Position numbers and translations under genes: made by a program
Shown here: piece after piece, positions 1,055 to 64,000 of the stretch
Layout: each line of letters begins with the position of its first letter
Numbering within the stretch: position 1 is the stretch's first letter
The notes under the pieces: generated by a model
Databases searched by the model: none
Seen by the model: only the letters and a program-made list of their open reading frames with translations
Told to the model about the DNA's origin: nothing
From: Squalus acanthias
Lineage: Eukaryota
NCBI GenBank assembly: GCA_030390025.1
Contig: CM059445.1
Coordinates: 40,176,001-40,240,000, forward strand
DNA length: 64,000 bases
Direction of reading: 5' to 3'

Positions 1055-4000
1055 GGCGCCTAATTTGCGGTCGGAGGCTTCCCGTGGGCGGATGCCTCCG
1101 ACCGGCAAAAAATCTACGAGCTTACCTTCTGCCTCGGGAACCACGGAGACTCGCGCTCCTAGAAACATAGAAGATAGGAGCAGGAGTAGGCCATTCGGCC
1201 CCTCGAGCCTGCTCCGCCATTCAATGTGATTGTGGCTGATCATCCAAATTCAGTACCCTGTCCCTGCTTTCGCCCCATATCCCTTGATCCCGTTAGCCTT
1301 CAGAAATATATCGAACTCCTTCTTGATTATATTTAATGAATTGGACTCAACTGTCTTCTGTGGTAGTGAATTCCACAGGTTCACCACTCTCTGGGTGAAG
1401 AAATTCCTCCTCATCTCAGTCCTAAATGGCTTACCCCTTATCTTAGACTGTGACCCCTGGTTCTGGACTCCCCCGCCATCGGGAACATCCTTCCTGCATC
1501 TAGTCTGTCTAGTCCTGTTAGAATTTTATAAGTTTCAATGAGATCCCCTCTCATTCTTCTAAACTCTAGCGAATACAAGCCCAATCGACCCAATCTCTCT
1601 TCATACATCATTCCTGCCATCCCAGGTATCAGTCTGGTGAATCTTCGCTGCACTCCCTCCATGGCAAGAACATCCTTCCTCAGATAAGGCGACCAAAACT
1701 GCACACAATACTCAAGGTGTGGTCTCACCAAGGCCTTGTACAACTGCAGCAATACATCCTTGCTCCTGTACTCGAATCCTCTCGCTATGAAGGCCAACAT
1801 ACCATTTGCCTTCTTAACCGCCTGCTTCACCTGCATGCTTACCTTCAGCGACTGGTGCACAAGGACACCCAGGTCTCGTTGCACTTCCCCTTTTCCCAAT
1901 CTATTGCCGTTCAGATAATCTGCCTTCCTGTTTTTGCCACCAAAGTGGATAACCTCGCATTTATCCACATTATACTGCATCTGCCATGCATCTGCCCAAT
2001 CACCCAACCTGCCCAAATCATACTGGAGTTTCTCTGCATCCTCCTCACAGCACACACGCCCACCCAGCTTTGTGTCGTCTGCAAACTTGGAGATATTAGA
2101 TCTAGTTCCCTCGTCTAGATCATTAATATATATTGTGAATAACTGGGGTCCTAGCACCGATCCCTGCGGTACCCCACTAGTCACTGCCTGCCACTCGGAA
2201 AAAGACCCGTTTATTCCAACTCTTTGCTTCCTGTCTTCCAACCAGTTTTCTATCCAAGTCAGTACCTTACCCCCAATCCCATGTGCTTTAACTTTGCACG
2301 CTAATCTCTTATGCGGGACCTTATCGAAAGCCTTCTGAAAGTCCAAATACACCACATCCACTGGTTCTCCCTTATCTATTCTACCAGTTACATCCTCAAA
2401 AAATTCCAGTAGATTAGTCAAGCATGATTTACCTTTTGTAAATCCATGTTGACTTTGTCTGATCTTGTCACTGTTTTTCAAGTGCTCTGCTATTACATCT
2501 TTTACAATGGACTCTAGCATTTTCCCCACTACCGATGTCAGGCTTACCATTTCCCCATTTTCTCTCTACCACCTTTTTTAAATAGTGGGGTTACATTAGC
2601 TACCCTCCAATCCATGGGAACTGTTCCAGAGTCTATAGAGTTTTGGAAGATGACCAGCAATGCATCTACTATTTCTAGGGCCACTTCCTTAAGTACCCTA
2701 GGATGTAGATTATCAGGCCCTGGGGATTTATCGGCCTTCAATCCTGTCAATTTCCCTAACACTATTTCCCTACAAATACTGATTTCATTCAGTTCCTCCC
2801 TCTCATTAGACCCTATGTTCCCTGACATCTCTGGAAGGTTATTTGTGTCCTCCTTTGTGAAGACAGAACCAAAGTATGTATTTAATTGGTCTGCCATTTC
2901 TTTGTTCCTCATTATAAATTCCCCTGAGTCTGAATGCAAGGGACCTACGCTTGACTTCAGCAATCTTTTTCTCTTTACATATCTATAGAAATTTTTAGAG
3001 TCAGTTTTTATGTTCGCTGCAAGGTTACTCTCATATTCTATTTTCCCCCTCTTAATTAATCCCTTTGTCCTCCTTTGCTGAATCCTAAACTGCTCCCAAT
3101 CCTTAGGTTTGCTGCTTTTTCTGGCCAATTTATATGTCCTCTCCTTGGATCTTATGCTATCCCTAATTTCCCTTGTTAGCCACGGTTGAGTCATCTTTTT
3201 TGTTTTATTTTTATGCCAAACAGGGATGAACAAATTCTGTAGTTCATCCATGCGATCTTTAAATGTTTGCCATTGCCTATCCACCGTCAACCCTTTAAGT
3301 AACGTTCACCAATCCATCCCAGCCAACTCGCGCCTCATACCATTGTAGTTTCCTTTATTTAAATTCAGCACCCTAGTCTCTGAGTCAACTACTTCGCTCT
3401 CTATCTTAATGAAGAATTCTATCATATTATGATCGCTCCTCCCCAAGGGGCCTCGCACAACAAGATTGCTAATTAATCCTTTCTCATTACATAATACCCA
3501 GTCTAAGATGGCCTGATCTCTAGTTGGTTTCTTGACATATTGGTGCAGGAAACCATCCCGTATACACTCTAAGAATTCCTCCTCCACAGTATTGTTACCA
3601 ATTTGGTTAGCCCAATCTATATGTAGACATGCGTAGAGGCCCATGTATCCCAGGGGCGCAGGCGGTTCTCGAGTGTCCCTGGATCACGTGGGCCAGGCCA
3701 ACAAATGACAGAAGGTGGATCCCCATTCATTCTTATCGGGATTCTGTATGTACGGAATCCCCATAAATATGAATGGGAATACCCCTCAAAAAATACCTCT
3801 ACACTTCAAATAAAAAAATTTTAAATCACGTTTAAAATTAATTAAAGTGGCATTTAATTAAATATTTAAAACAAAAATTGAAGGGGCTAAAATAAGCTTA
3901 CCTTATTTCACAGGTTTTTAAATGGTATAAATTATTGATAATTTTATTTTTCTGATTTTTAAAACTCTTACGCTGGTAAAAGCAGGCCTTACGACTGCTT

Positions 4001-7062: not shown

Positions 7063-9510
7063 TCAATCAAGATGCTTAGGAACAGTGACTGAAAAGAACA
7101 ATTAATTGGCTTTGAGGTGTTTTGGGATGCCCTGAGGATGTCAAAGCTGTTCTTTAAATGCAAGAAATTTCCAGTAACATTCTTTTAAAAGCCACTTTTG
7201 CACCTGTTGTGGATACAGTGCAGCCGGTACAAAGGCAAATGTGCAGGACTACATCCTCACGCCAGTTTCACGCAGTTTATCCGACCTCAATGAGCTGTCA
7301 CATTAGTTACCTCACTCCCAAAATATATAGCAGTGTCGGTGCAAGCCAGATTTTTTTTTAGTGTTGTGAAAATGATCTTGTACATCAGTTGAATTCAGGG
7401 CAGAATTGGTTTTCTCTTCCCTTTATTTGTTCTTAATTTCCAAGAATTGTATGCAGGATAACTATCATTAATTGCTTGGTTTAGTGCAAGTGATTAAATC
7501 CAGCAAAAGGTATAATTTGCTGATCTTTAAATTTTTAGTATTCTTGACTGTTTGATACTTCTTACTAATGGAGGACATTTGTGATGAAAACAAAATGAAT
7601 TCTTCTTTGGGGAATAGCTAACTTTAAAAAAGGCATCTTTAACTTTTTTAGGGGGAGGTTTACAAGGGATGCTTTTATTAAGTTTGGTGGGCTCCAGCAA
7701 GTTTTAAAGAATAGCTGAGAAGCAGGAAGCTACTCAGCTTAAACATTCACAGGCCTTTCTAAGTAATGAGAAATAGGATTCAATTTATTACCATTGGTTC
7801 ATTTATTCGATTTGCAATTTGATAAAGTCAGATGGAAGTTAAGAATATTGGAAAATGTTTAAACATAATCTCACTGAATTGAGGAAATACAATTGTTTGT
7901 GATTTTTTTTTAAAGTCCATATTGCGCTTGGCTAAGTGAGGGAAGTTGCTACTGGGAAATGGATCATTTCCAATTTTGGATTTCAAGCAATCACAAGTCA
8001 GTTTGTAGCATCATTCAATGCAGAGTGAAGTCCCAACAAAGTGACTCAGCCCCAAACTCAGAGAGTGCTGGCTATTGTATTGTGGCCTGTTTCCAAGAGT
8101 GCCCAGCAAAGAGGGAGGGGAGGGGAGGAGAGGGGGGAGGAAATAGCCGAAGCTGCACCTTGAGATATCAGGCCGGGGCTGGGCAGGTACCAGTCCTAGC
8201 TGATTCGTGCATTAGGCCAAGGTCAGACAGAGTCACTGGGTGGGGATGGGAGGGGGGATTGGGGGAGAGGAGGAGAGGGGGGAGGGGAGGAGCTAGAATG
8301 GGTGCCCAGGAGCTCAGCGTCACAATTATTGCTGAATTTTAAGATGAAATGAAATAAAAATTAAAATGTAGCTGACCTGAGTGGGACTATTTGCTAATAC
8401 ATTAAGAGAAAAATTGAAGTTTTAAATGCAGCCAATTCTGGCGGAGGCTGCCGAGAGGTCTCGAATGTAAAAACATGACTTCGTCTTTAATTTTGCAGGT
8501 GAGAAGGGATGCAGGAGGCTTAAAGACAGCAAAAATTTTAAAAAATTAAGTATTTTAAAAAAAAGTTGAAATACATGTATGTTCCCTGAAGTAAAACCAA
8601 GATGGCTGACAGTCTCTGCCAATTTCCAGAAACCTAGGGAACTAGAGCTTGTGATGTTCCATCTGGGAACTTTGGGACATTAGGCCATCGGGACATCCTG
8701 AGGTCATGAAAGGTGCTATATAAATGCAAGTCTTTCTTTTCTTTCTAATGATGTAAGTGTGCAGTAGGCGTGATGGCTAGGAGCTTCTAACTTAGTAATG
8801 GGAAATCCATTAGCAGTGAGGCAAAGCAAGAATTGGGCTGAGGAACTAAGTTCATTCGGGGAATGTTAAATTACCTTTTTAGAGAGTGTGAGAGTGTTAT
8901 TGTAGAGAGAGCCTCCCAACTGGTTTATCTCTTCTGGTATTAAAAGTAGGGAGAATATCTTTTCCCTCAGTTGTAATTTATTGACTAATAATGTTCCTCA
9001 CATGAATGTGTAATTTGGGTTAATCTATGTGTTTTAGTATTTCAGTAATTTTATGATATAAGCATAAGCCCACAACTTGCTATCACCTACATTATTTAAA
9101 TGTAGTTCGCTGTCTACTAAAATCAGGTATGAAAATGCAATTGTTATTGTACTGGATTGGCAACCTAAAGGTCATGAGTTCAAATCCCATTATGTCAAGT
9201 CATGAAATTGAATTGAATAAATTTGGTCATTTGTGGCTCGTCACTCATGCTGAACATGAGTCACCCGAGTCACTCGTGTTCAGCACCTTCTGTGAGTCTT
9301 CTAGGTTGGCACAGGTTTTAAAGTGTATCATTCCAAACCTATCTGATGACTTCCCTAATGTACATACCCTGTGAGTAGTAATAACTGAAGAAAAGTGAAA
9401 TTCTGATGCCCTGACTTTTGCACATAACTTGGTGAGATCAAGACAACCTGAATGAAGTGATATTGTTTTCAAATACTGAATATGCTCTTTATCCATTTTT
9501 TTTAAAACAG

Positions 9511-9807
9511 CGAGTCAGCATAAAGAACAGATTGCTACATCTGGCAAAGAGGGGGTGCTGACGTGCATCGCCCCTTTCAGGGCTGAAGTTGAGGAAACTA
9601 TTGTGTACTGGAAAAATAACTCTGACTTTATTTGCTATGTAAAAACCAAAGAAATCAAATGTGAAGGATTGCAGCATGATGCAGCTAAAGGAATAATGAC
9701 TTTAACTATCCCAGAATTAACTTTATCAGATACTGGAAAATATACCTGCAGCATCTTCACTAAAAACAATACCCATGAATGCAACATTAATCTGGTTGTA
9801 AAAGTTG
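9511..9807 (+). CDS. Gene A coding exon 2: V-type Ig domain (99 codons)
   Basis: Acceptor ttttttttaaaacag| and donor G|gtaagt, phase 1/1, 297 nt; GKEGVLTC...VYWK...TLTIPELTLSDTGKYTC...INLVV carries the canonical Cys, Trp and DxGxYxC. Confidence 0.92.
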
Positions 9808-11182: not shown

Positions 11183-12860
11183 GGAGCCCTAATATTGGCT
11201 GCGATTTAGCCGACCGGGGCGGCTGGGGTTGGTGTCGCGGTCCCAGCCCGCTGCCTACTCCAGCCCGCACTCTCCGAGTGATTTTACATAGAAACATAGA
11301 AGATAGGAGCAGGAGTAGGCCATTCGGCCCCTCGAGCCTGTTCCGCCATTTAATGAGATCATGGCTGATCATCCAAATTCAGTACCCTGTCCCTGCTTTC
11401 TCCCCATATCCCTTGATCTCCTTAGCCTTAAGAAATATATCTAACTCCTTCTTGAATATATTTAATGAATTGGCCTCAACTGTCTTCTGTGGTAGAGAAT
11501 TCCACAGGTTCAGCACTCTCTGGGTGAAGAAATTCCTCCTCATCTCAGTCCTAAATGGCTTACCCCTTATCCTTAGACTGTGACCCCTGGTTCTGGACTC
11601 CCCCGCCATCGGGAACATCCGTCCTGCATCTAGTCTGTCTAGTCCTGTTAGAATTTTATAAGTTTCAATGAGATCCCCTCTCATTCTTCTAAACTCTAGC
11701 GAATATAAGCCCAATCGACCCAATCTCTCTTCGTACGTCATTCCTGCCATCCCAGGTATCAGTCTGGTGAATCTTCGCTGCACTCCCTCCATGGCAAGAA
11801 CATCCTTCCTCAGATAAGGCGACCAAAACTGCACACAATACTGAAGGTGTGGTCACACCAAGGCCCTGTACAACTGCAGCAAGACATCCTTGCTCCTGTA
11901 CTCGAATCCTCTTGCTATGAAGGCCAACATACCATTTGCCTTCTTAACTGCCTGCTGCACCTGCATGCTTACCTTCAGCGACTGGTGCACAAGGACACCC
12001 AGGTCTCGTTGCACTTCCCCTTTTCCCAATCTATTGCCATTCAGATAATAATCTGCCTTCCTGTTTTTGCCACCAAAGTGGATAACCTCGCATTTATCCA
12101 CATTATACTGCATCTGCCATAGGGTTTGTTAAGCCCGCCCTGCGAGGTTCCCGGCCAATTAAACGGAAGCGGATCTGATGACGTCACTTGGTGTCGCGTC
12201 ATCAGCCGGTGTCCTTAAAGGGGCCATGTCCACATTCATTTTGACAGTTGTTCTGTCAGTGGTCTACAGCATTGATGGGCTGCAAACACTGACAAGCACT
12301 GCACAGAGGTGGACGGTTGCACCCAGGCTCACGCATGACCCCCTCCATATGCTTATGGAGGGAGTTACAGCCGCAGGGAGATTCTCTTCCCTTCCACTGG
12401 GCGGAAGAGACCTCCCCAGGATTGCAACACAGCCTGGTTGCACTTTGCACAGGAGGACACAAGCAGGGATGTTGTCAGGAGGACCAGGCTGCAGTGGCGC
12501 AAACCTTTCAATGATGCCAGTAGATCACAAAATATTACTGCAAAGCCACACTCAACCTCATCCTGCTGTGCCTCTCATCACATCCCCATCACTCTGCCTT
12601 CCCTACCCTACTCCTGCACATCCTTACTCACACCAACTTACCTTGCACCTTCACCCATCCCTCTCTATCTACATTATCACTTCCCCATCTCACTAGCCAC
12701 CCCTCACACTCACCGTCATCCTAGTCCAATCATGCCAACTAACAACACACACGGGTAGGCACGTGGGTGTTTTATGCAATGTTCATGTAAATTTTCTGTT
12801 AATGTGTTGTCAAACATTGAAATCTTTATATTCAACACTTTGCCGTAGTGGGCAGATCTG
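11183..12860 (+). mobile_element. Harbinger-derived element with degenerate Myb/SANT (NAIF1-like) exon, interrupted by CR1
   Basis: 12121-12860 translates in mixed frames to APRLTHDPLHMLMEGV...LHFAQEDTSRDVVRRTRLQWRKPFND; homologous to the inverted copy at ~30200-30963; the left arm 11183-11285 continues across the CR1. Confidence 0.75.
11286..12122 (-). mobile_element. CR1 LINE 3' fragment, same young subfamily as 1160-3627
   Basis: ORFs 11853-12113 and 11379-11834 (QFWSPYLRKD, RRNFFTQRVLNLWNSLP); flanked by catag on both sides. Confidence 0.95.
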
Positions 12861-13694: not shown

Positions 13695-13886
13695 GCTAAT
13701 GTATGGAATATAAAATGGGCGAATGTATGGAATATAAAATGGGCTAATGTATGGAATATACAATGGGCTAATGTATGGAATGTAAAATGGGCGAATGTAT
13801 GGAATATACAATGGGCTAATGTATGGAATATAAAATGGGCTAATGTATGGAATATAAAATGGGCTAATGTATGGAATATAAAATGG
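13695..13886. repeat. 24-bp minisatellite, ~8 copies
   Basis: Unit gctaatgtatggaatataaaatgg, with few substitutions. Confidence 0.95.
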
Positions 13887-21659: not shown

Positions 21660-22675
21660 AGTGGTCGAATTACAGTTCGCAGACGACGCTTGCGTCTGCG
21701 CACACTCGGAGGTCGAATTCCGAACCATCGTCAACACCTTCACCGAAGCATACGAGAGCATGGGCCTTACACTAAACATCCGTAAGACAAAGGTCCTCTA
21801 CCAACCTGCCCCCGCCACACAGTACTGCCCCCCGATTATCAAAATCCACGACAAGGCCTTGGACAACGTGGACCACTTACCATACCTCAGAAGCCTACTG
21901 TCAACAAGGGCAGACATCAACGACGTAGTCCAACACCGCCTTCAGTGTGCCAGTGCAGCCTTCGGTCGTCTAAGGAAGAGAGTGTTTGAAGACCAGGACC
22001 TCAAACCCGGCACTAAGCTCATGGTCTACAGAGCAGCAGTGATAACCGCCCTGCTGTATGCCTCAGAGACATGGACCATGTACAGCAGGCACCTCAAAGC
22101 ACTGGAGAGGTACCACCAACGCTGCCTCCGCAAGATCCTGCAAATCCATTGGCAGGATAGGCGCAACAACGTCAGTGTTCTTGCTCAGGCCAACATCCCC
22201 AGCATCGAAGCTTTGACCACGCTAGATCAGCTCCGATGGATGGGTCACATTGTCCGCATGCCCGATACGAGACTCCCAAAACAAGCGCTCTATTCGAGGC
22301 TCCGGCACGGCAAGAGAGCCCCAGGTGGGCAGAGGAAACGCTTCAAGGACACCCTCAAAACCTCCTTGAAAAAGTGTAACATCCCCACCGACACCTGGGA
22401 ATCCCTGGCCCAAGACCGCACAAAGTGGAGGAGAAGCATCCGGGAAGGCGCCGAACACCTCGAATCTCTTCGCCAGGAGCAAGCGCAGGCAGCGCAAGGA
22501 GCGCAAGGAGCGCACGTCAACCCAAGCACCCCACCCACCCGCCCCTTCAACCACCGTCTGCCCCACCTGTGACAGAGACTGTAGGTCCCGCATTGGACTC
22601 ATCAGTCACCTGCGAACTCATTTTTAATGTGGAAGCAAATCATCCTCGGTTCTGAGGGACTGCCTAAGAAGAAGA
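21660..22675 (+). mobile_element. RTE-clade LINE 3' fragment
   Basis: Starts at VVELQFADDAC (RT catalytic motif); same family as 1-953; (AAG)n tail. Confidence 0.93.
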
Positions 22676-23520: not shown

Positions 23521-24132
23521 CTGGAGGAGTGCAGAAGATGGTGTGTGTGTAGTCCTCTGGAGGAGTGCAGAAGATGGCATGTGTGTAGTCATCTGGAGGA
23601 GTGCAGAAGATGGCGTGTGCGTAGTCCTCTGGAGGAGTGCAGAAGATGGTGTGTGTGTAGTCCTCTGGAGGAGTGCAGAAGATGGTGTGTGTGTAGTCCT
23701 CTGGAGGAGTGCAGAAGATGGTGTGTGTGTAGTCCTCTGGAGGAGTGCAGAAGATGGTGTGTGTGTAGTCCTCTGGAGGAGTGCAGAAGATGGCGTGTGT
23801 GTAGTCCTCTGGAGGAGTGAAGAAGATGGTGTGTGTGTAGTCCTCTGGAAGAGTGCAGAAGATAGTGTGTGTGTAGTCCTCTGGAGGAGTGAAGAAGATG
23901 GTGTGTGTGTAGTCCTCTGGAGGAGTGAAGAAGATGGCGTGTGTGTAGTCCTCTGGAGGAGTGTAGAAGATGCTGTGTGTGTAGTCCTCTGGAGGAGTGA
24001 AGAAGATGGCGTGTGTGTAGTCCTCTGGAGGAGTGCAGAAGATGCTGTGTGTGTAGTCCTCTGGAGGAGTGCAGAAGATGCTGTGTGTGTAGTCCTCTGG
24101 AGGAGTGAAGAAGATGCTGTGTGTGTAGTCCT
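23521..24132. repeat. 36-bp minisatellite, 17 copies
   Basis: Unit ctggaggagtgcagaagatggtgtgtgtgtagtcct, head to tail with no spacers. Confidence 0.97.
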
Positions 24133-24784
24133 CCTAATGTTGGTTGCACTTGTAAAGAGCCTGACTCTCTGTTCCAGCAGAAGCCGACACCCACTTTTCT
24201 TTGCGAGCTGCTGCTGGACTTAATGGGCCTGTTTCCGGCCTGCGAAAAGTCTGCAGCTGGTTTAGTGCTTCAAAGCTGACCAATTAAAACCTTCAGTTTG
24301 AAATGGAGAACCATGGTGATGTTGCTGCACTGTGATCATGTGCCGAACATAGCTTTCTATTTTCCCCGTGGTCGTCATAAGGGCACAGTGATAATGGCAC
24401 CATGAGAGATAAAATAAACAAGGGAGGAAATTGCTGAGGTTGATATCGCTGCTCTTTAACTGTATACTCTATCTTTTGTAGCGATAGTCCTGTGGGGAAA
24501 AGGTGGGGATTGTGATCCATTACTATTCAAAGGGTGGTTTATGTTGTTTAGTACTATTCACAATTTGATTTAATCTATAGAAAAATAGATGCTGTTTAGA
24601 CTGTGAATTTGGACCATGTTCTAATGTCCTAAACCGTGTGGGCATTTCATGAATATAACTCATAACAGAACTTTAAGACTAAATTACAACCATTACTTCT
24701 CATCTGATCTTTCAGATAATCTATAATTATAAACATCTGTTTTATTACATCATTGTTTATATTCACACTATCCCGGTGGAAAAG

Positions 24785-39064: not shown

Positions 39065-41200
39065 TTTCTTTAATTCATTTTCAGGATGTGGGTGTCACTG
39101 GCAAGGCCAGCATTTATTGGCCATCCCTAGTTGCCCTTGAGAAGGTGATGGTGTGCTTTCTTCTTGAACTGCCGCAGTCCATGTGGTGAAGGAATTCCTA
39201 CAATGTTAGGTAGGGAGTTCCAGGAATTTGACCCAGCGACATTGAAGGAACAGGGATATATGTCTAAGTTGGGATGGTGGGGGATTTGGAGGGGAACTTG
39301 GAGGTGATGGTATTCAAATGCACCTGCTGCCATTGTCCTTTTTGGAGATGTTTGGGAGGTACTCCAAAGGAGCCTTGGTGAGTTACTTTAGTGCATCCTA
39401 CAGATAGTACACACTGCAGCCAGTGGATGGGGTGTTGATCAAGCGGACTGCTTTGTCCTGGATAGTGTTGAGTTTCTTGAATATCGTTGGAGCTGCACCC
39501 ATCCAGCAAATGGAAAGTATTCCATCACACTCCTGACTTGTGCCTTGTCTGTGGTAGAGAGGCTTTGGGGAGTCAGGAGGTGAGCCAATTTCCGCAGTGT
39601 ACCCAGCCTCTGGCCCCCAGAATGTTGATGGTGAGGGACTCGACAATGGTACTGCCCTTGAGTGTTAAGGGTACAATTCTGCAGCTGCTCATTACCAACA
39701 GCACTTCATGGATGCCCAGTTTTGAGCTGCTAGATACATTCTTAATCTATCCCACTTAGAATGGTGATAGTGTCACATGATATGATGGAGGGTGTCCTCA
39801 GTGTAAAGACAAGATTTGGTTTCCATGATGACTGTGCGGTGCTCACTCCAGCAATACTGGCCAGATGTATCTGTGACAGGTAGATTGGTGAGGATGAGAT
39901 TAAGTCAGTTTTTCCCTCGTATTGGTTCTCTCACCACCTGCTGCAAGCCCAGTCTGGCAGCTATGTCCTTCAGGACTTGGCCAGTTTGGTCAGTGGTGGT
40001 ACTGCACTCACTCGGAGGTCGAACTCCAAACCATCGTCAACACCTTCTCCGAAGCATACGCTAAACATCCGTAAGACAAAGGTCCTCTACCAACCTGCCC
40101 CTGCCACACAGTACTGCCCCCCGATTATCAAAATCCACGACAAGGCCTTGGACAACGTGAACCACTTTTCATAACTCGGAAGCCTACTGTCAACAAGGGC
40201 AGACGTCGATGACGAAGTCCAACACCGCCTTCAGTGTGCCAGTGCAGCTTTCGGTCGCCTGAGGAAGAGAGTGTTTGAAGACCAGGACCTCAAACCCGGC
40301 ACTAAGCTCATTGTCTACAGAGCAGCAGTGATACCCGCCCTGCTGTATGCCTCAGAGACATGGACCATGTACAGCAGGCACCTCAAAGCACTGGAGAGGT
40401 ACCACCAACGCTGCCTCCACAAGATCCTGCAAACCCATTGGCAGGATAGGCGCACCAACATCAGTGTTCTCGCTCAGGCCAACATCCCCAGCATCGAAGC
40501 TTTGACCGCGCTCGATCAGCTCCGATGGACGGGTCACATTGTCCGCATGTCCGATACGAGACTCCCAAAACAAGCGCTCTACTCGAGCTCAGCACGGCAA
40601 GAGAGCCCCAGGTGGGCAGAGGAAACGCTTCAAGGACACCCTCAAAGCCTCCTTGAAAAAGTGCAACATCCCCACCGACACCTGGAAATCCCTGGCCCAA
40701 GACCGCACAAAGTGGAGGAGAAGCATCCGGGAAGGCGCCGAACACCTCGAGTCTCTTCGCCGGGAGCAAGCGGAAGCCAAGCTCAATGAGCGCACGTCAA
40801 CCCAAGCACCCCACCCACCTGCCCCTTCAACCACCGTCTGCCCCACCTGTGACAGAGACTGTAGGTCCCGCATTGGACTCATCAGTCACCTGAGAACTCA
40901 TTTTTAATGTGGAAGCAAGTCATCCTCGGTTCCGAGGGACTGCCTAAGAAGAAGAAGGGTACTACCGAGCCACACGTGGTGATGGACATTGAAGTCCCCC
41001 ACCCAGAGTACATTCTGAGCCCTTGCTATCCTTGTATGCTTGTTTCCTCCAAGTGGTCTTCAACATGGAAGACTACTGATTTATCAGCTGAGGGAGGGCG
41101 GTCTGTGATAATCAGCAGTTGGTTTCCTTGCCCATGCTTTACCTGAAGCCTTGAGATTTCATGGGGTCTGAAGTCATCGTTGAGCACTCCCAGAGCCACA
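39065..41200 (-). mobile_element. Degenerate, internally deleted non-LTR retrotransposon (second LINE family), interrupted by RTE
   Basis: WMGAAPTIFKKLNTIQDKAVRLI and SWNSLPNIVG on the minus strand; endonuclease-like remnants near 40960-41200. Confidence 0.75.
40004..40957 (+). mobile_element. RTE-clade LINE 3' fragment with frameshifts
   Basis: Same family as 1-953; flanked by ggtact on both sides (putative TSD). Confidence 0.92.
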
Positions 41201-44278: not shown

Positions 44279-44378
44279 TCAGAATTCTGTTGTTGTTATT
44301 TTGTCCTTATGGGCATCAACATCTTCGACTGTGGCACTTTCGACCAATCTCCCTTGGTTCTCGTGTTGCTTTGAATTC
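44279..44378 (-). CDS. Gene B exon 7 (last): cytoplasmic tail RNSKQHENQGRLVESATVEDVDAHKDKITTTEF*
   Basis: Acceptor catttcttttctcattag|, phase 2 matching the 25-nt microexon; open for 32 codons to TGA. Confidence 0.75.
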
Positions 44379-46906: not shown

Positions 46907-46931
46907 CTACAGTTGCAAGGGCTGTCCCGAT
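46907..46931 (-). CDS. Gene B exon 6: 25-nt cytoplasmic microexon DRDSPCNC(R)
   Basis: Near-consensus sites attcttctcattccacag| and AG|gtaagt; phase 1 to phase 2. Confidence 0.75.
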
Positions 46932-48022: not shown

Positions 48023-48106
48023 CTTTCCATTTAATGCCCCAGATCAGTAATAAAATTACAGACACCGCAAAGATTGGCACTGATACAGATCGGACAGGAA
48101 AACTAC
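48023..48106 (-). CDS. Gene B exon 5: transmembrane SSFPVRSVSVPIFAVSVILLLIWGIKWK
   Basis: Acceptor ttttctgttccttcacag| and donor AAG|gtaaat; 84 nt, phase 1/1; hydrophobic run followed by a KWK stop-transfer. Confidence 0.85.
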
Positions 48107-50039: not shown

Positions 50040-50357
50040 TTTTCCAACCAGATGTTATGTATATTCCTACAGCAAGTTCTTTCAAGCCATATTTATTTTC
50101 TGCTCTGCAAATATACTCTCCATTGTCTGAATCATCAACACTCCTTTTCGTCAAGCCAGAACTGTTTACTCCAGCTTCCAATTGTATGCTTTGCCCCAAT
50201 AATTTCTTTTGCCAGATAACTATGGGTTCTGGGTTACTGTGCGCTGTACATTTTAGTTCAAGAAATGACTGGGGCGTAACATGGATGCTGTCTTGGAGCA
50301 GTGGTTGAAGCTGATCTGAATCAGAAGTCCTGTAACGTATGATGGGCTGTGGACCAT
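50040..50357 (-). CDS. Gene B exon 4: I-set/C2 Ig domain
   Basis: 318 nt, phase 1/1; YGPQP...LELKCTAHSNPEPIVIW...DDSDNGEYICRAENKYG; canonical splice sites. Confidence 0.92.
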
Positions 50358-51239: not shown

Positions 51240-51457
51240 TTACCAATTAGGACGAAAGGTCATTNNNNNNNNNNNNNNNNNNNNNNNNNNNNNNNNNNNN
51301 NNNNNNNNNNNNNNNNNNNNNNNNNNNNNNNNNNNNNNNNNNNNNNNNNNNNNNNNNNNNNNNNNNNNNNNNNNNNNNNNNNNNNNNNNNNNNNNNNNNN
51401 NNNCTGCCTGACCTGCTGGGTATTTTCAGCATTTTCTGCTTTAATTACCAATTAGGA
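51240..51457 (+). mobile_element. Short Penelope terminal fragment spanning a 139-N assembly gap (51265-51403)
   Basis: gacgaaaggtcatt...ctgcctgacctgctgggtattttcagcatttt; 13-bp direct repeat ttaccaattagga on both flanks. Confidence 0.7.
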
Positions 51458-52189: not shown

Positions 52190-52540
52190 AATTCACATTT
52201 AGGGTTATACTTTTTATTATCCACTCTTTACTTGTCGTATGAAGGACCTGACAGGTACAGATTGTCCTATGGTCTTCTTGCAAGATGGGCTTAAAAATCA
52301 TTTGACTGGTAACATTAAATGTGCCATCCGAATTCCTTAAGGTGGGCAGTCTAGTCGTATATCTAATTTTATCATCTGCTTCTGAAGGTTGAGCATTGTG
52401 AGAAATGGTTTGATCTTGGTGTAGCCATTTAATAGAGATATTCTGAGGATAAAATCCACCAGCGAGGCACTTCACAATCGACTCATGCCCGGCTACTAGT
52501 TCTTCCAGAGTAATAGAAATTGCTGGAGGAGATGGTGGGA
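52190..52540 (-). CDS. Gene B exon 3: C1-set Ig domain
   Basis: 351 nt, phase 1/1; CLAGGFYPQNISIKW...NSDGTFNVTS...TCQVLH are C1 hallmarks. Confidence 0.95.
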
Positions 52541-54467: not shown

Positions 54468-54815
54468 CATCGACATGCAATCGTGTTCCTGGTCCTCTTC
54501 TCTCTAATGGCGGGTAGACAGTTGGTATCTTCACCACACAGGTATAATTATAATCAGAGAACTTGAAAGGAACATTTTCAATCTTCAATGATGCAACACA
54601 GTGCTTAAAACCACCCAGAGCAATGTCAAAAGTGCAGTTATGCTCATGACTTTCATTGGGAGTATCAGCGATTCCTGGAGGGCTTCTGTCCCAGTTTGTA
54701 TGGATCCAATCAGTCTCATTTGCAGTGTAATTAAAGATACAGTTTAACGTGACTGATTTTCCTCGCAGGACGCTGACCAGATGTGGCTGAGTCACCTCCC
54801 CAATCACCGGATGAC
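54468..54815 (-). CDS. Gene B exon 2: germline-joined VJ-type Ig domain
   Basis: 348 nt, phase 1/1; EVTQP...GKSVTLNC...W...SLKIENV...YTC...RGPGTRLHV (GxGT J motif in the same exon). Confidence 0.94.
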
Positions 54816-55928
54816 CTATGGAACAAAATGTATCAATTGCTGAATGTAATCTTAGACCCAGTCAGGCTCATCTAAAAATAACGGGGAAGATTTATTACTT
54901 ATTGTGAAATTGTAAATGTGTATAATTCACATGTTCACAATATTGCTACGAGAGAGGAAGTTATCCCATAATGAAGAAAATTACAGCAAAAAATCGTCAA
55001 ACGCATTTGGTGAATTTAAAAGTGTTTAAATTACAGAGTTAATCCCCTGCTTTATTAATGTGCATTTAGCTTATATAAGAATAATATGTGATTAGAATAG
55101 TCTTGTTTATAGTCCAGCAGTATATTGTATTCCTGATGTGTTGGGTTGCTTTGAAATAGTGTTGTATGTTGTGCAGAGGAAGAGAGGTACTGCCAGTAAA
55201 CGTGTTCCAGACGCAGCCAGCTCCAGGGTTCAGGGCAAGAGCTGTTCCACTAGCTTGGGCAGAATGGGGGGGGGTTAAGCTGAACCATCTCTTGTAATTG
55301 GAGAATCCTTGTAGGGCTGTAGCAATAGATACAAAAACTCCCACCGTAAGTTTGTAGGCAGGAGAACTTGTCTACTGTGCTCGTCCTACACACACAAGTT
55401 TGTGAGGGCCCGATGACTCAGTCTGATGACAGAGAAACGTTTTCACCATTTCCCTCAGTTATGTGGGTGAGTTGTATTCCCATCTATAGCCGGACAGAAC
55501 CTTGTCTGGGATGAAAATACTTGTTTGGTTGTTTGTTTGGTTGTTTCAAGAAAATATAACATCGACTAATATTGTTCTCTTTGCACCATCTTAAATTCTG
55601 AACCTGGTGACGCTAATCCTAAGTGTATCTTAATAAATAGACATCCTCTCATTAAAAATTTCCTTCCCTCACACTCATAAGGCATCTATTTGTTTCTTGG
55701 TTGGTTCCAGGGTTATTGTCTCCGCTACACTGCCTTGAAATCCATTCCATGTGTTGGTCACTCTTTGTGTGAAGAAACTGTAGCTTATACATGGAGGACA
55801 TCTCTAGGGTTTGAAATAGTAGCCTACAACATTTTTTATTAAATACTTGTAGCTGGAAATCACTACAGCTGTTAACTCGTAAACTTTAAGAGTTATGTAG
55901 CAACTTTAAGAATTGTGCATCAATCTAT

Positions 55929-56692
55929 GGGGGCAAAATTGGGTGCTTTGCACCTCCCATTAGCGCCCTCGGGGGGCGCTAACGGGACACAAATGGCTTT
56001 GCAACCGGACGCGGCGCTGACATCGACTCCCGCCATACTCGGTGGGAGTTTTGCGGCGGCACTATGGCGTTGCGCCCCGATCTCTTTCACCCGGAGATTG
56101 TGACGTCATCGCCATGCACATCGCCCCGGTAGCGCCCCAGACCCGAAATTGACTTCCGCCCCCTGCAGCAGCGCCGGGCGAAAAACACTGACAGCTGCAG
56201 GAGGCGCGCATCAGTCGGCCGGCCGCTTCGGGGGCGATGATTAAAGGCGAGGTGGCTGAGGTAAGTAAAAAAAACTTACCTTTCTTGTTCCAGTTTTTTT
56301 TGTGGGTTCCTGCCCGCGATCGATCAGCCCGGCTCTCTGCTTGAGTGCCGGGCTGATCGCGCGGGATCGCGGCTGCCTTGGTGGTCCAGGTGGGTAATTT
56401 TTCTATTGCAGAGCCTGCAGCGATGGCCCTTCCCTTTAAGGGAGGGAAGGAGCCTTTGAATGCGGCGGCGCTGCACGGCCCAGTGTGCAGCGCTGCTGAA
56501 ATCTCCGCTACGCCTTGCTGCTGACTGCGCTCCAAGAAGGAAGTGGAGCGGTTTAGCGGTTTAGCGCTCCACTTCCTTCTTGGAGCGCAAAACCGAATTT
56601 TTTAAAAGTTTGGAAACATTAGCGCCTGGCACTAATTTTCCAAACTTTTAAAATTTAGCACCCCAAACGGGGATATAATGAATTTCTCCCCC
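55929..56692. mobile_element. GC-rich MITE (Harbinger-like) with a perfect 25-bp hairpin
   Basis: Ends gggggcaaaatt ... aatttctccccc; related to 44936-45686. Confidence 0.75.
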
Positions 56693-57413
56693 ATATGTTT
56701 AATTTAAATTGTAGCACTAATGATGGATTAAGGCACTGATCAGTACATGTCGATAGATTTTTGTTTGGTAAGGGTATAAAGAGATATGGAGCAAAGGCAA
56801 GTAAATGGAGTAGAGTTGCAGATCAGTTATGACCTAATAGAATGACTGTATAGGCTCGAGGGGTTGAATGGCCTACTCCTGTTCCTAAGTATAATTATAC
56901 TGCCACTTTCACATCAAAGGGGAAATGGTTTCAGGGCGTAACAACACAAAAGTGGACGTATAACCTGGTTTGGATCAGCATCCGTCTCCCCAACACACTA
57001 AAGTAAGAATTGGAACACTGTGCAGTTATACTGTGACTACAGTCTGTTTGGCGCTTACATGAGTTGCAGTATAACTCCAGCCCAGTGCAAAGTCAGTTTT
57101 TGAAAGTACCCAGGCCTTTCATTGAATCCCCTGGGAACTTCAGAAACATCTTTTAAAAATCTTTTTAATGGCTTGAGAAAGTCCGCCACCCTGACCGTGC
57201 TCTCATAATGTTAAAAATGAATCGTCCGTGAACAGAGCTCTGTGCAAGCATACACGCACACAGTTCGGCTGTAGTTAATTTACAGTGTGAGGTGCAGTCA
57301 GCAGTGTATCGCAGATCTGCTGGCGGACCATCACACTCTATAGATACCGGTCTGAGTGCTACCTGTGGTATTCCAGCACCCTTTGATATTAATGATCAAA
57401 ATAATTGTATAAT

Positions 57414-57740
57414 TATAAATCTCTAAGCATGTCCTCTTCTGTCTACAACCAGAAAGGGCATTGATTATCATCACCACACATTGTATGTATAATGAGAGTC
57501 TTGGAAATAAACTGTCAATCTTCAGCAATCCAACAATTGCTGCTCAGACCACCTGATTCAAGGTCAGAAATGCAGGTCACGCTATTCCCCTTTAAAATAT
57601 CCGATTGTCAAAGTAAAGCCCCTGTACCAGGCTGTGTGGATCCAGTCAGCATAATTAAATATACAGTTCAATATGACAAACTGAACTCTCAAGGGCACTG
57701 ACTAGATGCTGCAGAGTCACCTCCTCAACAACCAGGACAC
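57414..57740 (-). pseudogene. Frameshifted duplicate V exon in gene B intron 1
   Basis: Successive frames give EEVTLQHLVSAL / VILNCIFNYADWIHTAW / TCISDLESGG / LKIDS / CVVMI, collinear with exon 2; upstream intron sequence is also homologous; the donor is lost. Confidence 0.88.
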
Positions 57741-57870
57741 CTGATGGGATCAAATGTCTCATCTGCTGAACATAATCTGAGACCTGATCGCACACTTTTA
57801 CCTGTAATATTATAAAGAAAATCACAATGACAAAATTTTTAAAAAAAACAAGGAACACCATGAACACAGA

Positions 57871-60510
57871 GCGGGGAAATTTTAACCTGGAGGAGCGCGT
57901 GGATTTGGATGCAGGTGGGGGGTTAAAACCGGCAGAAATGCGAGCATGTCGGGAAGCCGGCTCCAACCCGCCAACTTCTGCATTTCACTCGAGCGTGTTA
58001 GGCTGCTTGCGCGCAAGCCCCTCGGGAGAGGAGGGTTGCCTATTAACATGAAATTGAAGTGTCGTAAACTACAAGGCTACGGACCAAGAGCTGGAAAGTG
58101 GGATTAGGCTGGATAGCCCTTTTTCGGCTGGTGTGGACACGATGGGCTGAATGGTCTCCTTCTGTGCCGTAAATTTCTATGATTTCTATGATATGGTAGT
58201 CGCTCAATTGGAGCAATATTTCAACAGTTTTAAATTTAGCACTGCATCCATGGGTTTCCCGGGCTTCCTGAAACTCAGCATTGAAAGCAAGGCGAGAACA
58301 CAATAGCAATTGAGGGGGCTGATTAAAACTCATGGAAATACTGCAAAAATACTCAGTACTCACAGCTGCTTTCTTACCTACTACTGGGAAAGGGTTTGTT
58401 CATAGTACTTTTGTTGAGAGTGTACTTTCTACACTTTGGAGGTTTTCTGAATCACAGCAGGATGGCGCCTTGGCTGCCTTAGATTGGACCTCGGACAAGG
58501 AGCAATATGACCAGCACCAGCAGCAGCCTGCTGTTGAGAGACCTGCAGCTGGACAGCAGAGAGGGGAGCAGCAAAGAGGGGAGCATTAGAGAGGGGAGCA
58601 GAGAGGGGAACAGCAGAGAGAGGAGCAGCAGAGAGAGGAGCAGCAGAGAGAGGAGTAGCACAGAGGAGAGCAGCAGAGAGAGGAGCAGCAGAGAGAGGAG
58701 TAGCAAAGAGGGGTGCAGCAGAAAGAGGAGTAGCAGAGAGAGGAGTAGCACAGAGGAGAGCAGCAGAGAGGGGAGCAGCAGAGAGAGGAGCAGCAGAGAG
58801 GGGAGCAGCAGAGAGAGGAGCATTAGAGAGGGGAGCAGAGAGGGGAACAGCAAAGAGGGAAGCAGCAGAGAGAGGAGTAGCAGAGAGAGGAGTAGCAAAG
58901 AGGGGTGCAGCAGAAAGAGGAGTAGCACAGAGGGGAGCAGCTGAGAGGGCAGCAGAGAGGGGAGCAGCAGAGAGAGGAGTAGCAGAGAGGGGGGCAACAG
59001 AGAGAGGAGCAGAGAGAGAGGAGTAGCAGAGAGAGGAGCAGAGAGAGGAGTAGCAGAGAGGGGAGCAGAGAGGGGAGCAGCAGAGAGGGGAGCAGCAGAG
59101 AGGGGAGTAGCAGAGGGATGCAGCTCGCAGGAGGCACTACCCGTGATGCAGGGTTCACAGGCAGAGGTTGAGTTTCCTTGACATGTCGGGACAGCAGTGC
59201 TTCAGGAGGCTCAGGTTGTCGTGTCAGGTGGTGGCAGATGTCTGCAACCTCCTAGAAGAAGACCTGCTCCCTGCTGGAGCTGGAGGCCAGACATTACCAG
59301 TAGCTGTGAAAGTGACCACCGCCCTCAAAGTGTTTGTCTCCAGTCTCCAGATCCTTAAGTGTGAGTCCTATGATTGTCTTATAAAGAAAGGTTGAGCAGG
59401 TTGGGCCTATACTCATTGGAGTTTAGAAGAATGAGAGGGGATCTTATTGAAACATATAAAATTCTTAAGGGGCTTGACAGGGCAGATGCAGAGAGGATGT
59501 TTCCCCTCGTGGGGGAATCTAGAACTGGGGTGCATAATTTCAGAATAAGGGGGCACTCATTTAAAATGGAAATGGAGGAGGAATTTCTTCTCTCAGAGGG
59601 TCGTGAATCTTTGGAATTCTCTTCCCCAGAGAGCTGTGGAGGCTGGGTCATTGAATATATTTAAGGTGGAGATAGACAGATTTTTGAATGATAAGTGAGT
59701 CAAGGTTTATGGGGAACGGGCAGGGAAGTGGAGTTGAGGCCAAGATCAGATCAGCCATGATCTTATTGAATGGCGGAGCAGGCTCGAGGGGCCGAATGAC
59801 CTGCTCCTGCTCCTACGTCTTATGTTCTTATGGTGGATGGATAGATGGGGATTTGAGGAAGTGCATAGAAAGAGAAAGATGGGTGTGCATGCAAGGTAAG
59901 TGGGTGTGAGGAGTGATGTGATGGAGTAGGCTTGACAAGGCAGCGTGAGGGGGTGGGTGGCTCACAGCAGGATGTCGGTGAATGTGCACCTGTACTCACC
60001 CTTTCTGACCTGGTTCGGTCATTAAAGCACTTCCTGCACTGAATCCAGGAGCGTGGCACTATGCTCCTGCTGCTGACCGCCTTGGCCACCTCCAGCCACA
60101 CCTTCTTTGTGGCAGCAGCAGGTTTCTTTCTCCCATTGCTGGGGAAGAGCATCTCTCTCCGGCTCCCCACAGCCCCCACCGTACATCATGGGAGGCGTCA
60201 TTGAAGCGGGCGCAGCCTTGGAGCGTCCGGAATCCATTGTCACACCTTGTCTTTTCTTGTTTCCAACTTCAACGCCTCCAAATTCCATCTTTGGATTGGC
60301 CCTTTAAATACTGGAGTCGAGCTTTTGTCATTCGGCTCCTCAGCACGCCCGCTGCCGCGCAATCGACGCCAAACCCGGAAGTAAAATGATAATGAGTTGG
60401 CTGCGTTAAAGTGCCACTGGCAGACCTGCCCAACTTAATTCCAGGTTTCTCACGTGATATCGGACCCCCCCTCCCCCCCAAGCTCCCAATGCGCCCGAAT
60501 GTTTGTGTAA
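57871..60510. mobile_element. Decayed two-gene PIF/Harbinger transposon (transposase +, Myb/SANT -) with nested CR1 pieces (~58060-58192, ~59375-59832)
   Basis: + strand RQRLSFLDMSGQQCFRRLRLS...LPVAVKVTTAL (HARBI1-like N-terminus); - strand RREMLFPSNGRKKP...VWLEVA...RSWIQCRKCFND (NAIF1-like). Confidence 0.82.
58553..59118. repeat. Purine-rich 12/15-bp tandem repeat (gagcagcagagagag / gagcagagaggg)
   Basis: Seen directly; it explains the low-complexity ORFs 58479-58997 and 58507-58944. Confidence 0.95.
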
Positions 60511-60571
60511 ATTTTACAGTATATAATCTCAGTTCACAAACTAAATCATTGTTAAAGCACAATATGTTACA

Positions 60572-60995
60572 AAAGAAAAGTAAGACTTGCATTTATATAG
60601 CGCCTTTCACAACCACCGGACCTCTCAAAGCGCTTTACAGTCAATAAAGTACTATTTGAAGTGGGAAACGCAGCAGCCAATTTGCGCACAGCAAGGTCCC
60701 ACAAACAGCAATGTGATAATGACCTATAATCTGTTTGTGTTATGTTGCTTGATAACTCCCCTGCTCTTCTTCGAAATAGTGCCATGGGATCTTTTACATC
60801 CACCTGAGAGAGCAAACGGGGCTTCGGTTTAATGTCTCATCCGAAAGATGGCACCTCCCGACAGTGAAGCACTCCCTCAGTACTGCACTGGAATGTCAGC
60901 CTAGATTAAGTGTGCTCAAGTGTCTAGAGTGGGACTATGAACCCACAACCTTCTGACTCAGAGGCGAGTGCGCTACCAACTGAGCCACAGCTGAC
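60572..60995 (-). mobile_element. tRNA-derived Deu-domain SINE, full length
   Basis: Reverse complement of the 6628-7062 family (actccctcagtactgcactg; ctaccaactgagccacagctgac). Confidence 0.88.
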
Positions 60996-61251
60996 AGAAG
61001 TTAAGTAATAACCTCTAAATTCACTCTAAAGATTCTGTACAGCTACAAAACATGTTACACTGTGAACATTCTGGGTTTTAGTGCCCGACCCTCCCTCTGA
61101 ACTTCAATCTACAACAAGATTCCAGCAAAATCCGCACTCTGGAAATGTTGACCAAATCTGTACTTTATCAGTAAGGAATTTTCCATCACTTTATTCTATT
61201 AAAACATGAGCTACTAAGTGGAAACTTTGTATCAAATTAATATATTTAAGT

Positions 61252-63440
61252 TATACGAACATACGAATTAGGAGCAGGAGAAGGCCACTCGGCCCTTCGA
61301 GCCTGCTCCACCATTCAATAAGATCATGGCTGATCCGATTATTCCACATTCCCGCCTACCCTCGATAACTTTTCACCCCCTTGCTTACCAAGAATCTATC
61401 TACCTCTGCCTTAAAAATATTCAAAGACTCTGCTTCCACCGCCCTCTGAGGAAGAGAGTTCCAAAGACTCACAACCCTCTGTGAGAAAAAATTTCTCCTC
61501 ATCTCTGTCTTAAATGGGCGACCCCTTATTTTTTAACAGTGACCCCTAGTTCTAGATTCTCCCACAAGAGGAAACATCCTCTCCACATCCACCCTGTCCA
61601 GACCCCTCAGGATCTTATATGTTTCAATCAAGTCACCTCTTATTCTTCTAAACTCCAGCGGATACAAGCCTAGCCTGTCCAACCTTTCCTCATAAGACAA
61701 CCCGCCCATTCCAGGTATTAGTCTAGTAAACCTTCTCTGAACTGCTTCCAATGCATTTACATCCTTCCTTAAATAAGGAGACCAATACTGTACACAGTAC
61801 TCCAGATGTGGTCTCACCAATGCCCTGTATAACTGAAGCATAACCTCCCTACTTTTGTATTCAATTCCCCTCACAACAAACGATAACATTCTATTAGCTT
61901 TCCTAATTACTTGCTGTACCTGCATAGTAACCTTTTGTGATTCATGCACTAGGACACCCAGATCCCTCTGCATCTCAGAGCTCTGCAATCTCTCACCATT
62001 TAGATAATATGCTTCTTTTTTATTCTTCCTGCCAAAATGGACAACTTCACATTTTCCCACATTATACTCCATTTACCAGATCTTTGCCACTCACTTAACT
62101 TATCTATATCCCTTTGTAGCCTCCTTATGTCCTCTTCACAATTTACTTTCCTACCTATCTTTGTGTCATCAGCAAATTTAGCAAACATACCTTCGGGCCC
62201 TTCATCCAAGTCATTTATATAAATTGTAAAAAGTTGAGGCCCCAGCACTGATCCCTGTGGCACACCACTCATTACATCTTGCCAATCAGAAAATGACCCA
62301 TTTATGCCTACTCTCTGTTTCCTGTTAGCTAGCCAATTTTCTATCCATGCCAATATGTTGCCCCCTACACCATGACCTTTTATTTTCCGCAATAACCTTT
62401 GATGTGGCACCTTATCAAATGCCTTCTGGAAATCTAAGTACAGTACATCCACTGGTTCCCCTTTATCCACAGCACATGTTACTTCCTCAAAGAACTCCAA
62501 TAAATTGGTTAAACATGATTTCCCTTGCACAAAACCATGTTGACTCTGCCTGATTACTTTGAACTTTTCTAAATGCCCTGCTATAACGTCTTTAATAATA
62601 GCTTCTAACATCTTCCCTATGACAGATGTTAAGCTAACTGGTCTGTAGTTTCCTGCTTTCTGTCTCCCTTTTTGAATAAAGCAGTTACATTCGCTATTTT
62701 CCAATCTAATGGAACCTTTCCCGAATCTAGGGAATTTTGGAAAATTAAAACCAACGCATCAACTATCTCACTAGCCACTTCTTTTAAGACCCTAGGATGA
62801 AGTCCATCAGGACCTGGGGACTTGTCAGCCCGCAGCTCCAACAATTTGCTCAGTACCACTTCCCTGGTGATTATAATTTTCTTGAGCTCCTCCCTCCCTT
62901 CCATTTCCTAGTTTACAGCTATTTCTGGGATGTTTATTGTATCCTCTATAGTGAAGACCGATGCAAAATACCTGTTCAAAACAACTACCATCTCCTTATT
63001 TTCCATTATTAATTCCCCAGACTTACTTTTTATAGGACCAACGCTCACTTTGTTAACTCTTTTCTTTTTTAAATATCTATAGAAACTCTTACTATCTGTT
63101 TTTATATTTCTAGCTAGCTTTCTCTCATACTCTAATTTGTCTCTCCTTATTAATCTTTTAGTCATTTATTGCTGTTTTTTATATTCTGTCCAATCTTCTG
63201 ACCTGTCATCCATCTTTGTGCAATTATATGCTTTTTCTTTCAGTTTAATACTATCTATAACTTTTTTAGTTAACCACGGATAGTGGGTTCTCCCCTTGGA
63301 ATTTTTCATTCTTGTTGGAATGTATATATTCTGTGTATTTTGAAATGTCCCCTTAAATGTCTGCTACTGCAACTCTATTGACCTATCCCTTAACCTAATT
63401 TGCCAGTTCACTTTAGCTAGCTCTGCTTTCATGCCCTCAT
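61252..63440 (-). mobile_element. CR1 LINE, 5'-truncated, frameshifted ORF2
   Basis: ORFs 62908-63165, 62629-62904, 62000-62704 and 61533-62072 carry the full RT motif series. Confidence 0.96.
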
Positions 63441-63586
63441 AATTATATTAATTACTACAGACATTTTCTTTGAATGATCCCGTAGTGTTACTCTTAACTG
63501 TTTAGTATTCGTTTGTGATGAGCCGCAGTCAGAACCAAATCTGTAATACAGAGATTGGATTAAAAGACTTTAATCAGAGCACTAAC

Positions 63587-63644
63587 CTGTTACACCAGTC
63601 TGTGTCAGAAGGAACACCAACAGCTGCAGTAATATGCTCTCCAT
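63587..63644 (-). CDS. Gene B exon 1: signal peptide MESILLQLLVFLLTQTGVT(G)
   Basis: 58 nt; ATG followed by G; hydrophobic core; phase-1 donor CAG|gttagt matching the phase-1 V exon. Confidence 0.85.
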
Positions 63645-63687
63645 TCGACGTCCTCTTAATTCAGTTCAGTTTATTTCTATCTTCAAA

Positions 63688-63701
63688 TTATCTTATTTAT
63701 A
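63688..63701 (-). promoter_or_regulatory. Candidate TATA box (TATAAAT) and adjacent GATA site for gene B
   Basis: Lies ~50 nt upstream of the leader ATG; GGAA (ETS-like) cores at ~63825-63833. Confidence 0.35.
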
Positions 63702-64000
63702 CACAATTCTTTGGTACATAATCCTGTATCATGAACGGTGTCTCCTCAAGACTGTGTTTATTTCAGCTTAAGTGTTTGAAGAGACAGATCTGACCGCTTT
63801 GATCAACTAGGTTTAATGAGGGCAGGAAGGAAATGCATGTGTTTCATTTAGGTGTGTTGATGGTTTGTAACTAGCACACATGATATTCAAGACAGAAACC
63901 ACTGATTTTGTGTAGACCAATTCCATTTTCCATTGAATTAGAGTAACAGTGAATTGTTAGGGTGAATAATTTATTTCCATAGAATGAATTATTAAAAATC

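Follow-up and report, generated by a model that had tools for sequence, protein, structure and literature searches.

The window analysed here (64,000 nucleotides of Squalus acanthias, contig CM059445.1) contains on its minus strand an intact gene, called gene B below, with the domain order leader, V, C1, I, transmembrane segment and tail (L-V-C1-I-TM-tail). Its seven exons have GT/AG boundaries and form an open reading frame of 427 residues. The leader exon (63587..63644; 19 codons and 1 nucleotide, phase 1, GT donor) was located by a leader scan and is the sole hydrophobic leader-like exon in 54860-64000, save one match inside a repeat at 57947. It is followed by the live V exon (54468..54815; 116 codons, phase 1-1, Pfam V-set with E 1.1e-5), in which the V part and a J-like G strand are unsplit, by a C1-set exon (52190..52540; Pfam C1-set, E 6.6e-11) and by an I-set Ig exon identified by a domain match (50040..50357). 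The gene model is completed by a transmembrane exon (48023..48106), whose helix has an Arg at its outer edge, and by two cytoplasmic exons, one of 25 nucleotides (46907..46931) and one that extends to the stop codon (44279..44378); the tail has no tyrosine. A run of 139 N letters (51265-51403) in the intron between the C1 and I exons is an assembly gap.

Other features of the window include gene A, an unrelated single Ig exon of V/I type (9480-9806, plus strand) whose Atlas neighbours are generic (TIGIT-like, CD4-like). Tandem repeats occupy 58554-59115 in intron 1 of gene B (period 15, 38.5 copies), 23521-24133 (period 36, 17 copies) and 13695-13886 (period 24, 8 copies). LINE (reverse-transcriptase) fragments are found at 1160-3080, 11287-12120, 61258-63174 and 59374-59831, one of them just inside intron 1, and a 950-nucleotide repeat is present in three copies (3-954, 21696-22675 and 40002-40955) with 92-93% identity.

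Between the leader exon and the live V exon, the minus strand from 57740 to about 57416 is a degenerate copy of the live V exon; this pseudo-V exon is placed at 57416..57740 by the alignments to live V. A dead second V exon in intron 1 of gene B had been proposed from the letters alone, and the proposal holds: the homology is significant, the frame is broken and the donor is gone. The three peptide pairs quoted in its support are present in the sequence, the position between leader and live V is as described (no other leader-like exon outside a repeat), and the pairwise alignment suggested as a check is significant. Blastn aligns 57622-57784 to live V across 175 columns with 70% identity (E 2.8e-16). 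For the local DNA alignment, a score of 290 contrasts with 83 +/- 11 in shuffles (max 114, n=100). A frameshift-aware protein alignment, with 44/98 residues identical, scores 121 against 27 +/- 4 in shuffles (max 35, n=20) and passes through six frame changes, in agreement with the multiple frameshifts originally described. Pseudo-V thus has what is expected of a pseudoexon that arose by exon duplication: a significant match to a functional exon elsewhere in gene B, a destroyed reading frame and a lost splice site.

The acceptor AG of pseudo-V is intact, and the exon starts at 57740 directly after it. Downstream there are at least six frameshifting indels. The lesions, with positions accurate to a few nucleotides, comprise an early +1 at about 57692, a 12-nucleotide deletion at about 57650, further frame changes at about 57610, 57538, 57510, 57481 and 57456, and a deletion of 7 or 21 nucleotides after 57430. 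The first stop in the frame of the leader is the TAA at 57657-57655 (codon 29). The last letters of the exon can also be aligned as decayed intron following a 21-nucleotide deletion; under either alignment there is no GT at the homologous donor.

Upstream of pseudo-V, the segment 57741..57883 (minus strand) is homologous by local alignment to the intron preceding live V, and this part of the original prediction, a match between the two acceptor-side introns, is also borne out. The last 44 nucleotides are identical at 34/44 positions (hand count) and end in AG; the homology extends for about 140 nucleotides, to about 57880, where the duplicated block is bordered by a high-copy dispersed repeat (57873..58049, read depth in the hundreds to thousands in 4/4 runs). 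The duplicated portion consists only of the V exon and these roughly 140 nucleotides of its upstream intron. Sliding alignments, the leader scan and profile HMMs for the family C, I, tail and leader revealed no further duplicated part of gene B in intron 1, and duplication of the whole gene inside this intron was rejected, since neither another leader nor any trace of C, I or tail is present.

We also considered a rearranging Ig/TCR V segment and rejected it, since the G strand is within the same exon and matches to the recombination signal are at chance level. The 12-spacer signal pattern gave 2 matches at 3 mismatches with 0.84 expected by chance (21/100 shuffles reach 2), and the 23-spacer pattern gave 0 matches. 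One signal-like sequence with 3 mismatches, at chance level, lies at 57823-57850 of the plus strand, 80 nucleotides upstream of the pseudo-exon.

Relatives were compared over 56950-58060 using 4 of the 23 available sequencing runs (X6, X7, X11 and X16), one for each of the related organisms B, C, D and F. Pseudo-V, at least in part, is present with its flank at the same site in all four. Over 57473-57811 the X7 contig departs from the window at 14 substituted positions. Its 10 gap letters, all individually located, touch neither the early +1 nor the 12-nucleotide deletion; these two lesions are common to the window and X7. Both X6 and X7 are gap-free over 57348-57474, so the 3' deletion and the loss of the donor are shared with them. 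X7, X11 and X16 all lack the 2-nucleotide deletion near 57512, which is therefore either lineage-specific or an assembly error. The most distant relative compared, X16, yields one contig across 57039-58008 with 11.8% difference from the window; it has 61 gap letters and 12/37 readable indel rows, so its frame is only partly known. Depth arithmetic for X16, which is blind to insertions, indicates that no single letter is left out in 57672-57709 (the bin of the early +1) and that about 12 letters are missing at 57482-57519. Most of the exon has no cover in X6, and X11 has holes; neither was read as absence.

The divergence of X7 from the window is 4.1% in the pseudo-exon and 4.6% in the flank, and that of X11 is 5.0% and 5.8%; these two relatives are the ones that allow such a comparison, and in them pseudo-V decays at the intronic rate, although the counts are small. 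Of the 14 changes in X7, 12 are listed and 8 can be mapped to codons; 6 of the 8 are non-synonymous. No intact upstream V was seen in the four relatives, X11 and X16 being only partly readable. Considering the shared lesions and the equal divergence of exon and flank, the exon was dead before lineages A and C split and probably also before A and F split. Since the lesions are shared with related species (as judged from the relatives' runs only), sequencing error is rejected as the origin of the frameshifts, a check that the original prediction had called for. It had also stated that the absence of any intact copy together with a neutral pattern would indicate a duplication dead on arrival; both were found within these four fairly close relatives.

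The intact acceptor raises the question of whether pseudo-V acts as a "poison" exon, which, spliced through a cryptic donor, would insert a premature stop and lower the output of gene B. The AG and the block before it are conserved, 11 donor-like sites were found downstream, and the leader with pseudo-V joined to each of the 8 sites tested, then to V or C1, reaches a stop within 29-47 residues. We give this explanation very little credence: the exon body diverges at the rate of its flank, the acceptor block itself departs from the window at 57751 in X7 and X11, and the donor-like sites come from a scan with a loose consensus and are expected by chance. Pseudo-V is presumably skipped in the mature mRNA, its donor being lost.

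The host gene belongs to a family for which protein searches and a profile-library search gave 27 proteins of sharks and rays (P0001-P0004, P0009-P0014, P0016 and P0022-P0037), some of them isoforms of one gene. Six of the 27 are of the gene-B type and 21 of a sister type. The closest to gene B is P0001 of the sawshark, with 70-77% identity per domain, as would suit a squalomorph shark; between the two types, identity is 45-61% in V, 35-41% in C1 and 30-45% in I. Three or four ITIM-like motifs of the pattern (S/I/V/L/T)xYxx(I/L/V) are present in 16/21 sister-type proteins; of the other five, two have no transmembrane segment in the model and three have tails of 6-19 residues. The gene-B type has short tails; gene B and all four orthologues with a transmembrane segment have the Arg at the outer helix edge. 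A third type (P0034 and P0035) has almost no tail and an Arg within the helix. In Hemiscyllium, S. canicula and S. torazame both main types are on contigs of one length, which points to the same chromosome, near each other or not. The family V domain has, in addition to the canonical cysteine pair, a second invariant pair (C61 and C73 in live V) and two invariant prolines in the FG loop.

This family includes ITIM-tailed members and a short-tailed member with a basic membrane residue, as paired receptors do, and gene B seems to be its short-tailed, Arg-bearing member, within a SIRP-like paired-receptor family of elasmobranchs. By analogy, gene B may be coupled to an adaptor through the Arg. 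The names "Siglec-like" given to these proteins are automatic labels, because no Arg is among the invariant or 90% columns of 17 aligned family V sequences, as a Siglec would require. A germline-joined N-terminal domain of VJ type followed by C1 is found as in SIRPs; the ectodomain of gene B is V-C1-I rather than V-C1-C1. SIRPs are among the best non-shark sequence matches, and the best PDB sequence match is SIRP-alpha (2wng, E 4.7e-15), with a score barely above those of Ig chains. The ESM Atlas neighbours of the family V are generic V-set domains only, including PD-1-like and CTLA-4-like clusters. Judging by these sequence features, the family would resemble SIRP and Siglec in its working but is assigned to neither. 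The literature searched, with few subscription journals and no supplements, contains no account of this shark family or of the pseudo-V exon.

Among the 27 proteins, 22 have one V end, four have none and one has two. The last is P0024 of the epaulette shark, Hemiscyllium ocellatum (610 aa, ITIM type), whose two tandem V domains are identical at 105/115 positions, the first of them without the F-strand Cys. Two in-frame V exons of the same phase are thus present in P0024 and not in gene B today. As P0024 is a predicted model, its V-V arrangement may be a recent duplication independent of that in gene B, or an assembly artefact. A leader is missing from all six gene-B-type models, and V is complete in just one of them. 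In the five non-sawshark models (P0002, P0003, P0004, P0009 and P0016) most or all of V is missing: two models begin within V, a third has a V fragment joined to C1, a fourth begins in the middle of C1, and the fifth opens with LINE reverse-transcriptase sequence; P0016 also has no C1. Mis-annotation would account for this, as would a V exon broken in those lineages. All six orthologue models are truncated at the 5' end, and the window supplies the complete structure from leader to stop.

The age of the copy was estimated over 83 codons in hand-chosen segments, 15 poorly alignable codons being omitted. Pseudo-V differs from live V by 29% of nucleotides (19/25/28 by codon position), or about 0.59 neutral substitutions per site. 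It is old: the 29% compares with 11.8% to the most distant relative compared. The pairwise omega is 0.51, with omega = 1 rejected (p 0.03), which allows for a period in which the copy worked. The Nei-Gojobori estimate is 0.42 (95% 0.23-0.77); a working period deduced from it was dropped, as with transition bias modelled a dead-on-arrival history is within 1 log unit. Codon models of a dead-on-arrival and of a partly working history differ by less than this.

Concerning the donor, both ends of pseudo-V look like those of the ITIM-bearing sister genes, a point missed by the original prediction, as was the membership of gene B in a family of inhibitory and activating types. Residue 2 is Val, as in 9/19 sister V domains, while both full gene-B-type V domains have His; the last five codons need 2 base changes to become the sister ending and 5 to become the gene-B one, a likeness with a chance P of about 0.04 by shuffles and random intron pieces. 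In all, sister-type states occur at residues 2, 86, 114 and 116. In codon scores against pseudo-V, a catshark sister V is first among 21 full V domains (63.5), live V second (58.1) and the sawshark orthologue 13th (20.9). The maximum-likelihood tree places pseudo-V outside live V plus sawshark V with support 87.8/93. This placement rests on the five 3' codons, since without them the support drops to 26/43. Placing pseudo-V as sister to live V gives p 0.17 in the AU test, and neither placement is rejected.

A younger, purely local tandem duplicate of the gene B V exon, made after the sawshark split and dead on arrival, would explain a good part of these data, with the sister-like residues due to chance or ancestry. 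The copied portion is just V and its adjoining intron; without the five 3' codons the tree prefers the sister-to-live-V placement by 4.5 log units (not significant); Ile27 is shared only with live V and Asn29 with the gene-B-type V; and at 0.59 substitutions per site a lower identity would be expected in the acceptor block (P 0.009, for a block chosen as the best). A dead-on-arrival model also fits. The four sister-type states, the higher score of the catshark sister V, and a distance to live V several times that to the farthest relative speak against it, and we consider a local duplicate possible but doubtful. The sister-type residues might also suggest the remnant of a neighbouring family gene that lost its 3' part, so that its leader and V were fused to the V-C1-I-TM of gene B; the gene B leader resembles those of sister genes, and the two types share a chromosome in the three species named. 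Such a fusion has our least confidence of all, given that the V exons have no additional leader and no vestige of C, I or tail between or around them, a weak objection as a clean deletion would leave none.

The probable source, in our view, is an ancient copying event close to the time at which the gene B lineage originated. An unequal crossover among V exons of paired Ig-superfamily receptors, that is, misaligned recombination between family V exons, is likely to have added a second phase 1-1 V to intron 1. The inserted V would have brought its own acceptor and settled in front of the present V exon; in support of this, the stretch between the two V exons is free of a further leader and of C, I or tail remnants. 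The source would be the ancestral V of gene B or the V of a sister gene, and the copy would have arisen before gene B acquired its own G-strand ending, so that the sister-type residues were retained. Because of the phase 1-1 exons, the default product of a complete copy before its death would have been an in-line V-V-C1-I protein (mRNA L-V-V-C1-I), not alternative cassettes. Death on arrival and an early loss fit the data alike; with donor and frame lost, the copy would be skipped in splicing and today is likely removed with the intron.

The original prediction offered two histories of the gene. A former state with two V domains in tandem is possible, P0024 being a precedent; there is no sign that this particular copy ever worked. 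The other, alternative V cassettes in which the leader was spliced to one of two V exons, V1 or V2, ahead of a single constant region, found no support. We presume it very unlikely, although the two exons have the same phase-1 acceptor with a well-kept block, an omega of 0.51 is compatible with a selected period, and the leaderless orthologue models are unable to exclude an upstream V. Cassettes would require intact exons; the upstream one is broken in the window, with shared lesions readable in X6 and X7, and no intact copy was seen in the four relatives. Decay at the flank rate, a dead-on-arrival history that the best codon model betters by no more than 1 log-likelihood unit, the presence of only two copies with no evident mechanism for mutual exclusion, and the prevalence of a single V end in the family (two tandem V domains in one protein, none in four) argue against it too. 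A broader scenario appears rather unlikely: an ancestor of gene B with two working V exons, one of sister type and one its own, in tandem or alternative, on one activating-type backbone, within an undescribed SIRP-like paired-receptor cluster of sharks and rays whose ligand-binding V exon would repeatedly be duplicated and exchanged, an unsampled lineage still keeping both.

As a dead exon, pseudo-V is an ordinary fossil; duplication and subsequent loss are frequent among phase 1-1 exons for Ig domains. Taken with the V-V form of the epaulette shark, it records, with a date, the turnover of V exons within a receptor family, and most of the weight of the finding lies with this family, not with the dead exon. 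If the family is a true inhibitory/activating pair, the dynamics of paired receptors extend to cartilaginous fish and the "Siglec-like" names are to be corrected. Should an intact second V be used somewhere as an alternative cassette, a non-rearranging VJ-C1 gene would have variable-domain diversity at the level of splicing, a route relevant to the origins of antigen receptors.

Among known systems, mammalian SIRPs are similar in having a germline-joined VJ-type domain followed by C1, and in comprising ITIM-bearing and short-tailed members; the shark family has V-C1-I where SIRPs have V-C1-C1. The SIRP membrane segment has a Lys in its middle, and that of gene B has an Arg at the helix edge. 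UrIg, NKp30 and PRARP, described as non-rearranging VJ-C1 genes in the part of PMC10751288 drawn on here, offer a further parallel, from a cartilaginous fish, for a VJ exon left unsplit beside one for C1; UrIg, with V-C1-C2-C3 (9dmx), differs in matching only locally (E 2.4e-12).

Xenopus CEACAM (PMC5112662) and Siglec-11/16 and Siglec-5/14 (PMC6288428) are, according to the sections of these sources used here, paired receptors with exchange of the N/V or V exon, and like the shark family they combine an inhibitory ITIM member with a short-tailed one. In those pairs, as between the two shark types, the ligand-binding exon is more alike among paralogues than the rest, and recombination acts on it, as it may have done in the sharks; the difference is that their exon was converted in place and is functional, whereas in gene B an extra copy was added and then died. 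The portion of PMC6288428 consulted also describes Siglec-12, an immune receptor with two V-set domains and loss-of-function alleles; both of its V domains are encoded, and the shark family is without the invariant Arg in V.

Mutually exclusive exons of the Dscam type share with gene B the presence of two homologous exons of the same phase; theirs are intact and conserved, while the upstream shark copy is broken wherever it is readable. The closest parallel is within the family itself, in P0024 (annotated at NCBI as sialic acid-binding Ig-like lectin 8 isoform X2), with tandem V domains before C-I-TM. Its upstream V copy is already without a core Cys, as the upstream copy in gene B is decayed; unlike the latter it is recent (105/115), belongs to an ITIM-bearing gene and, in the predicted model, is still in frame.
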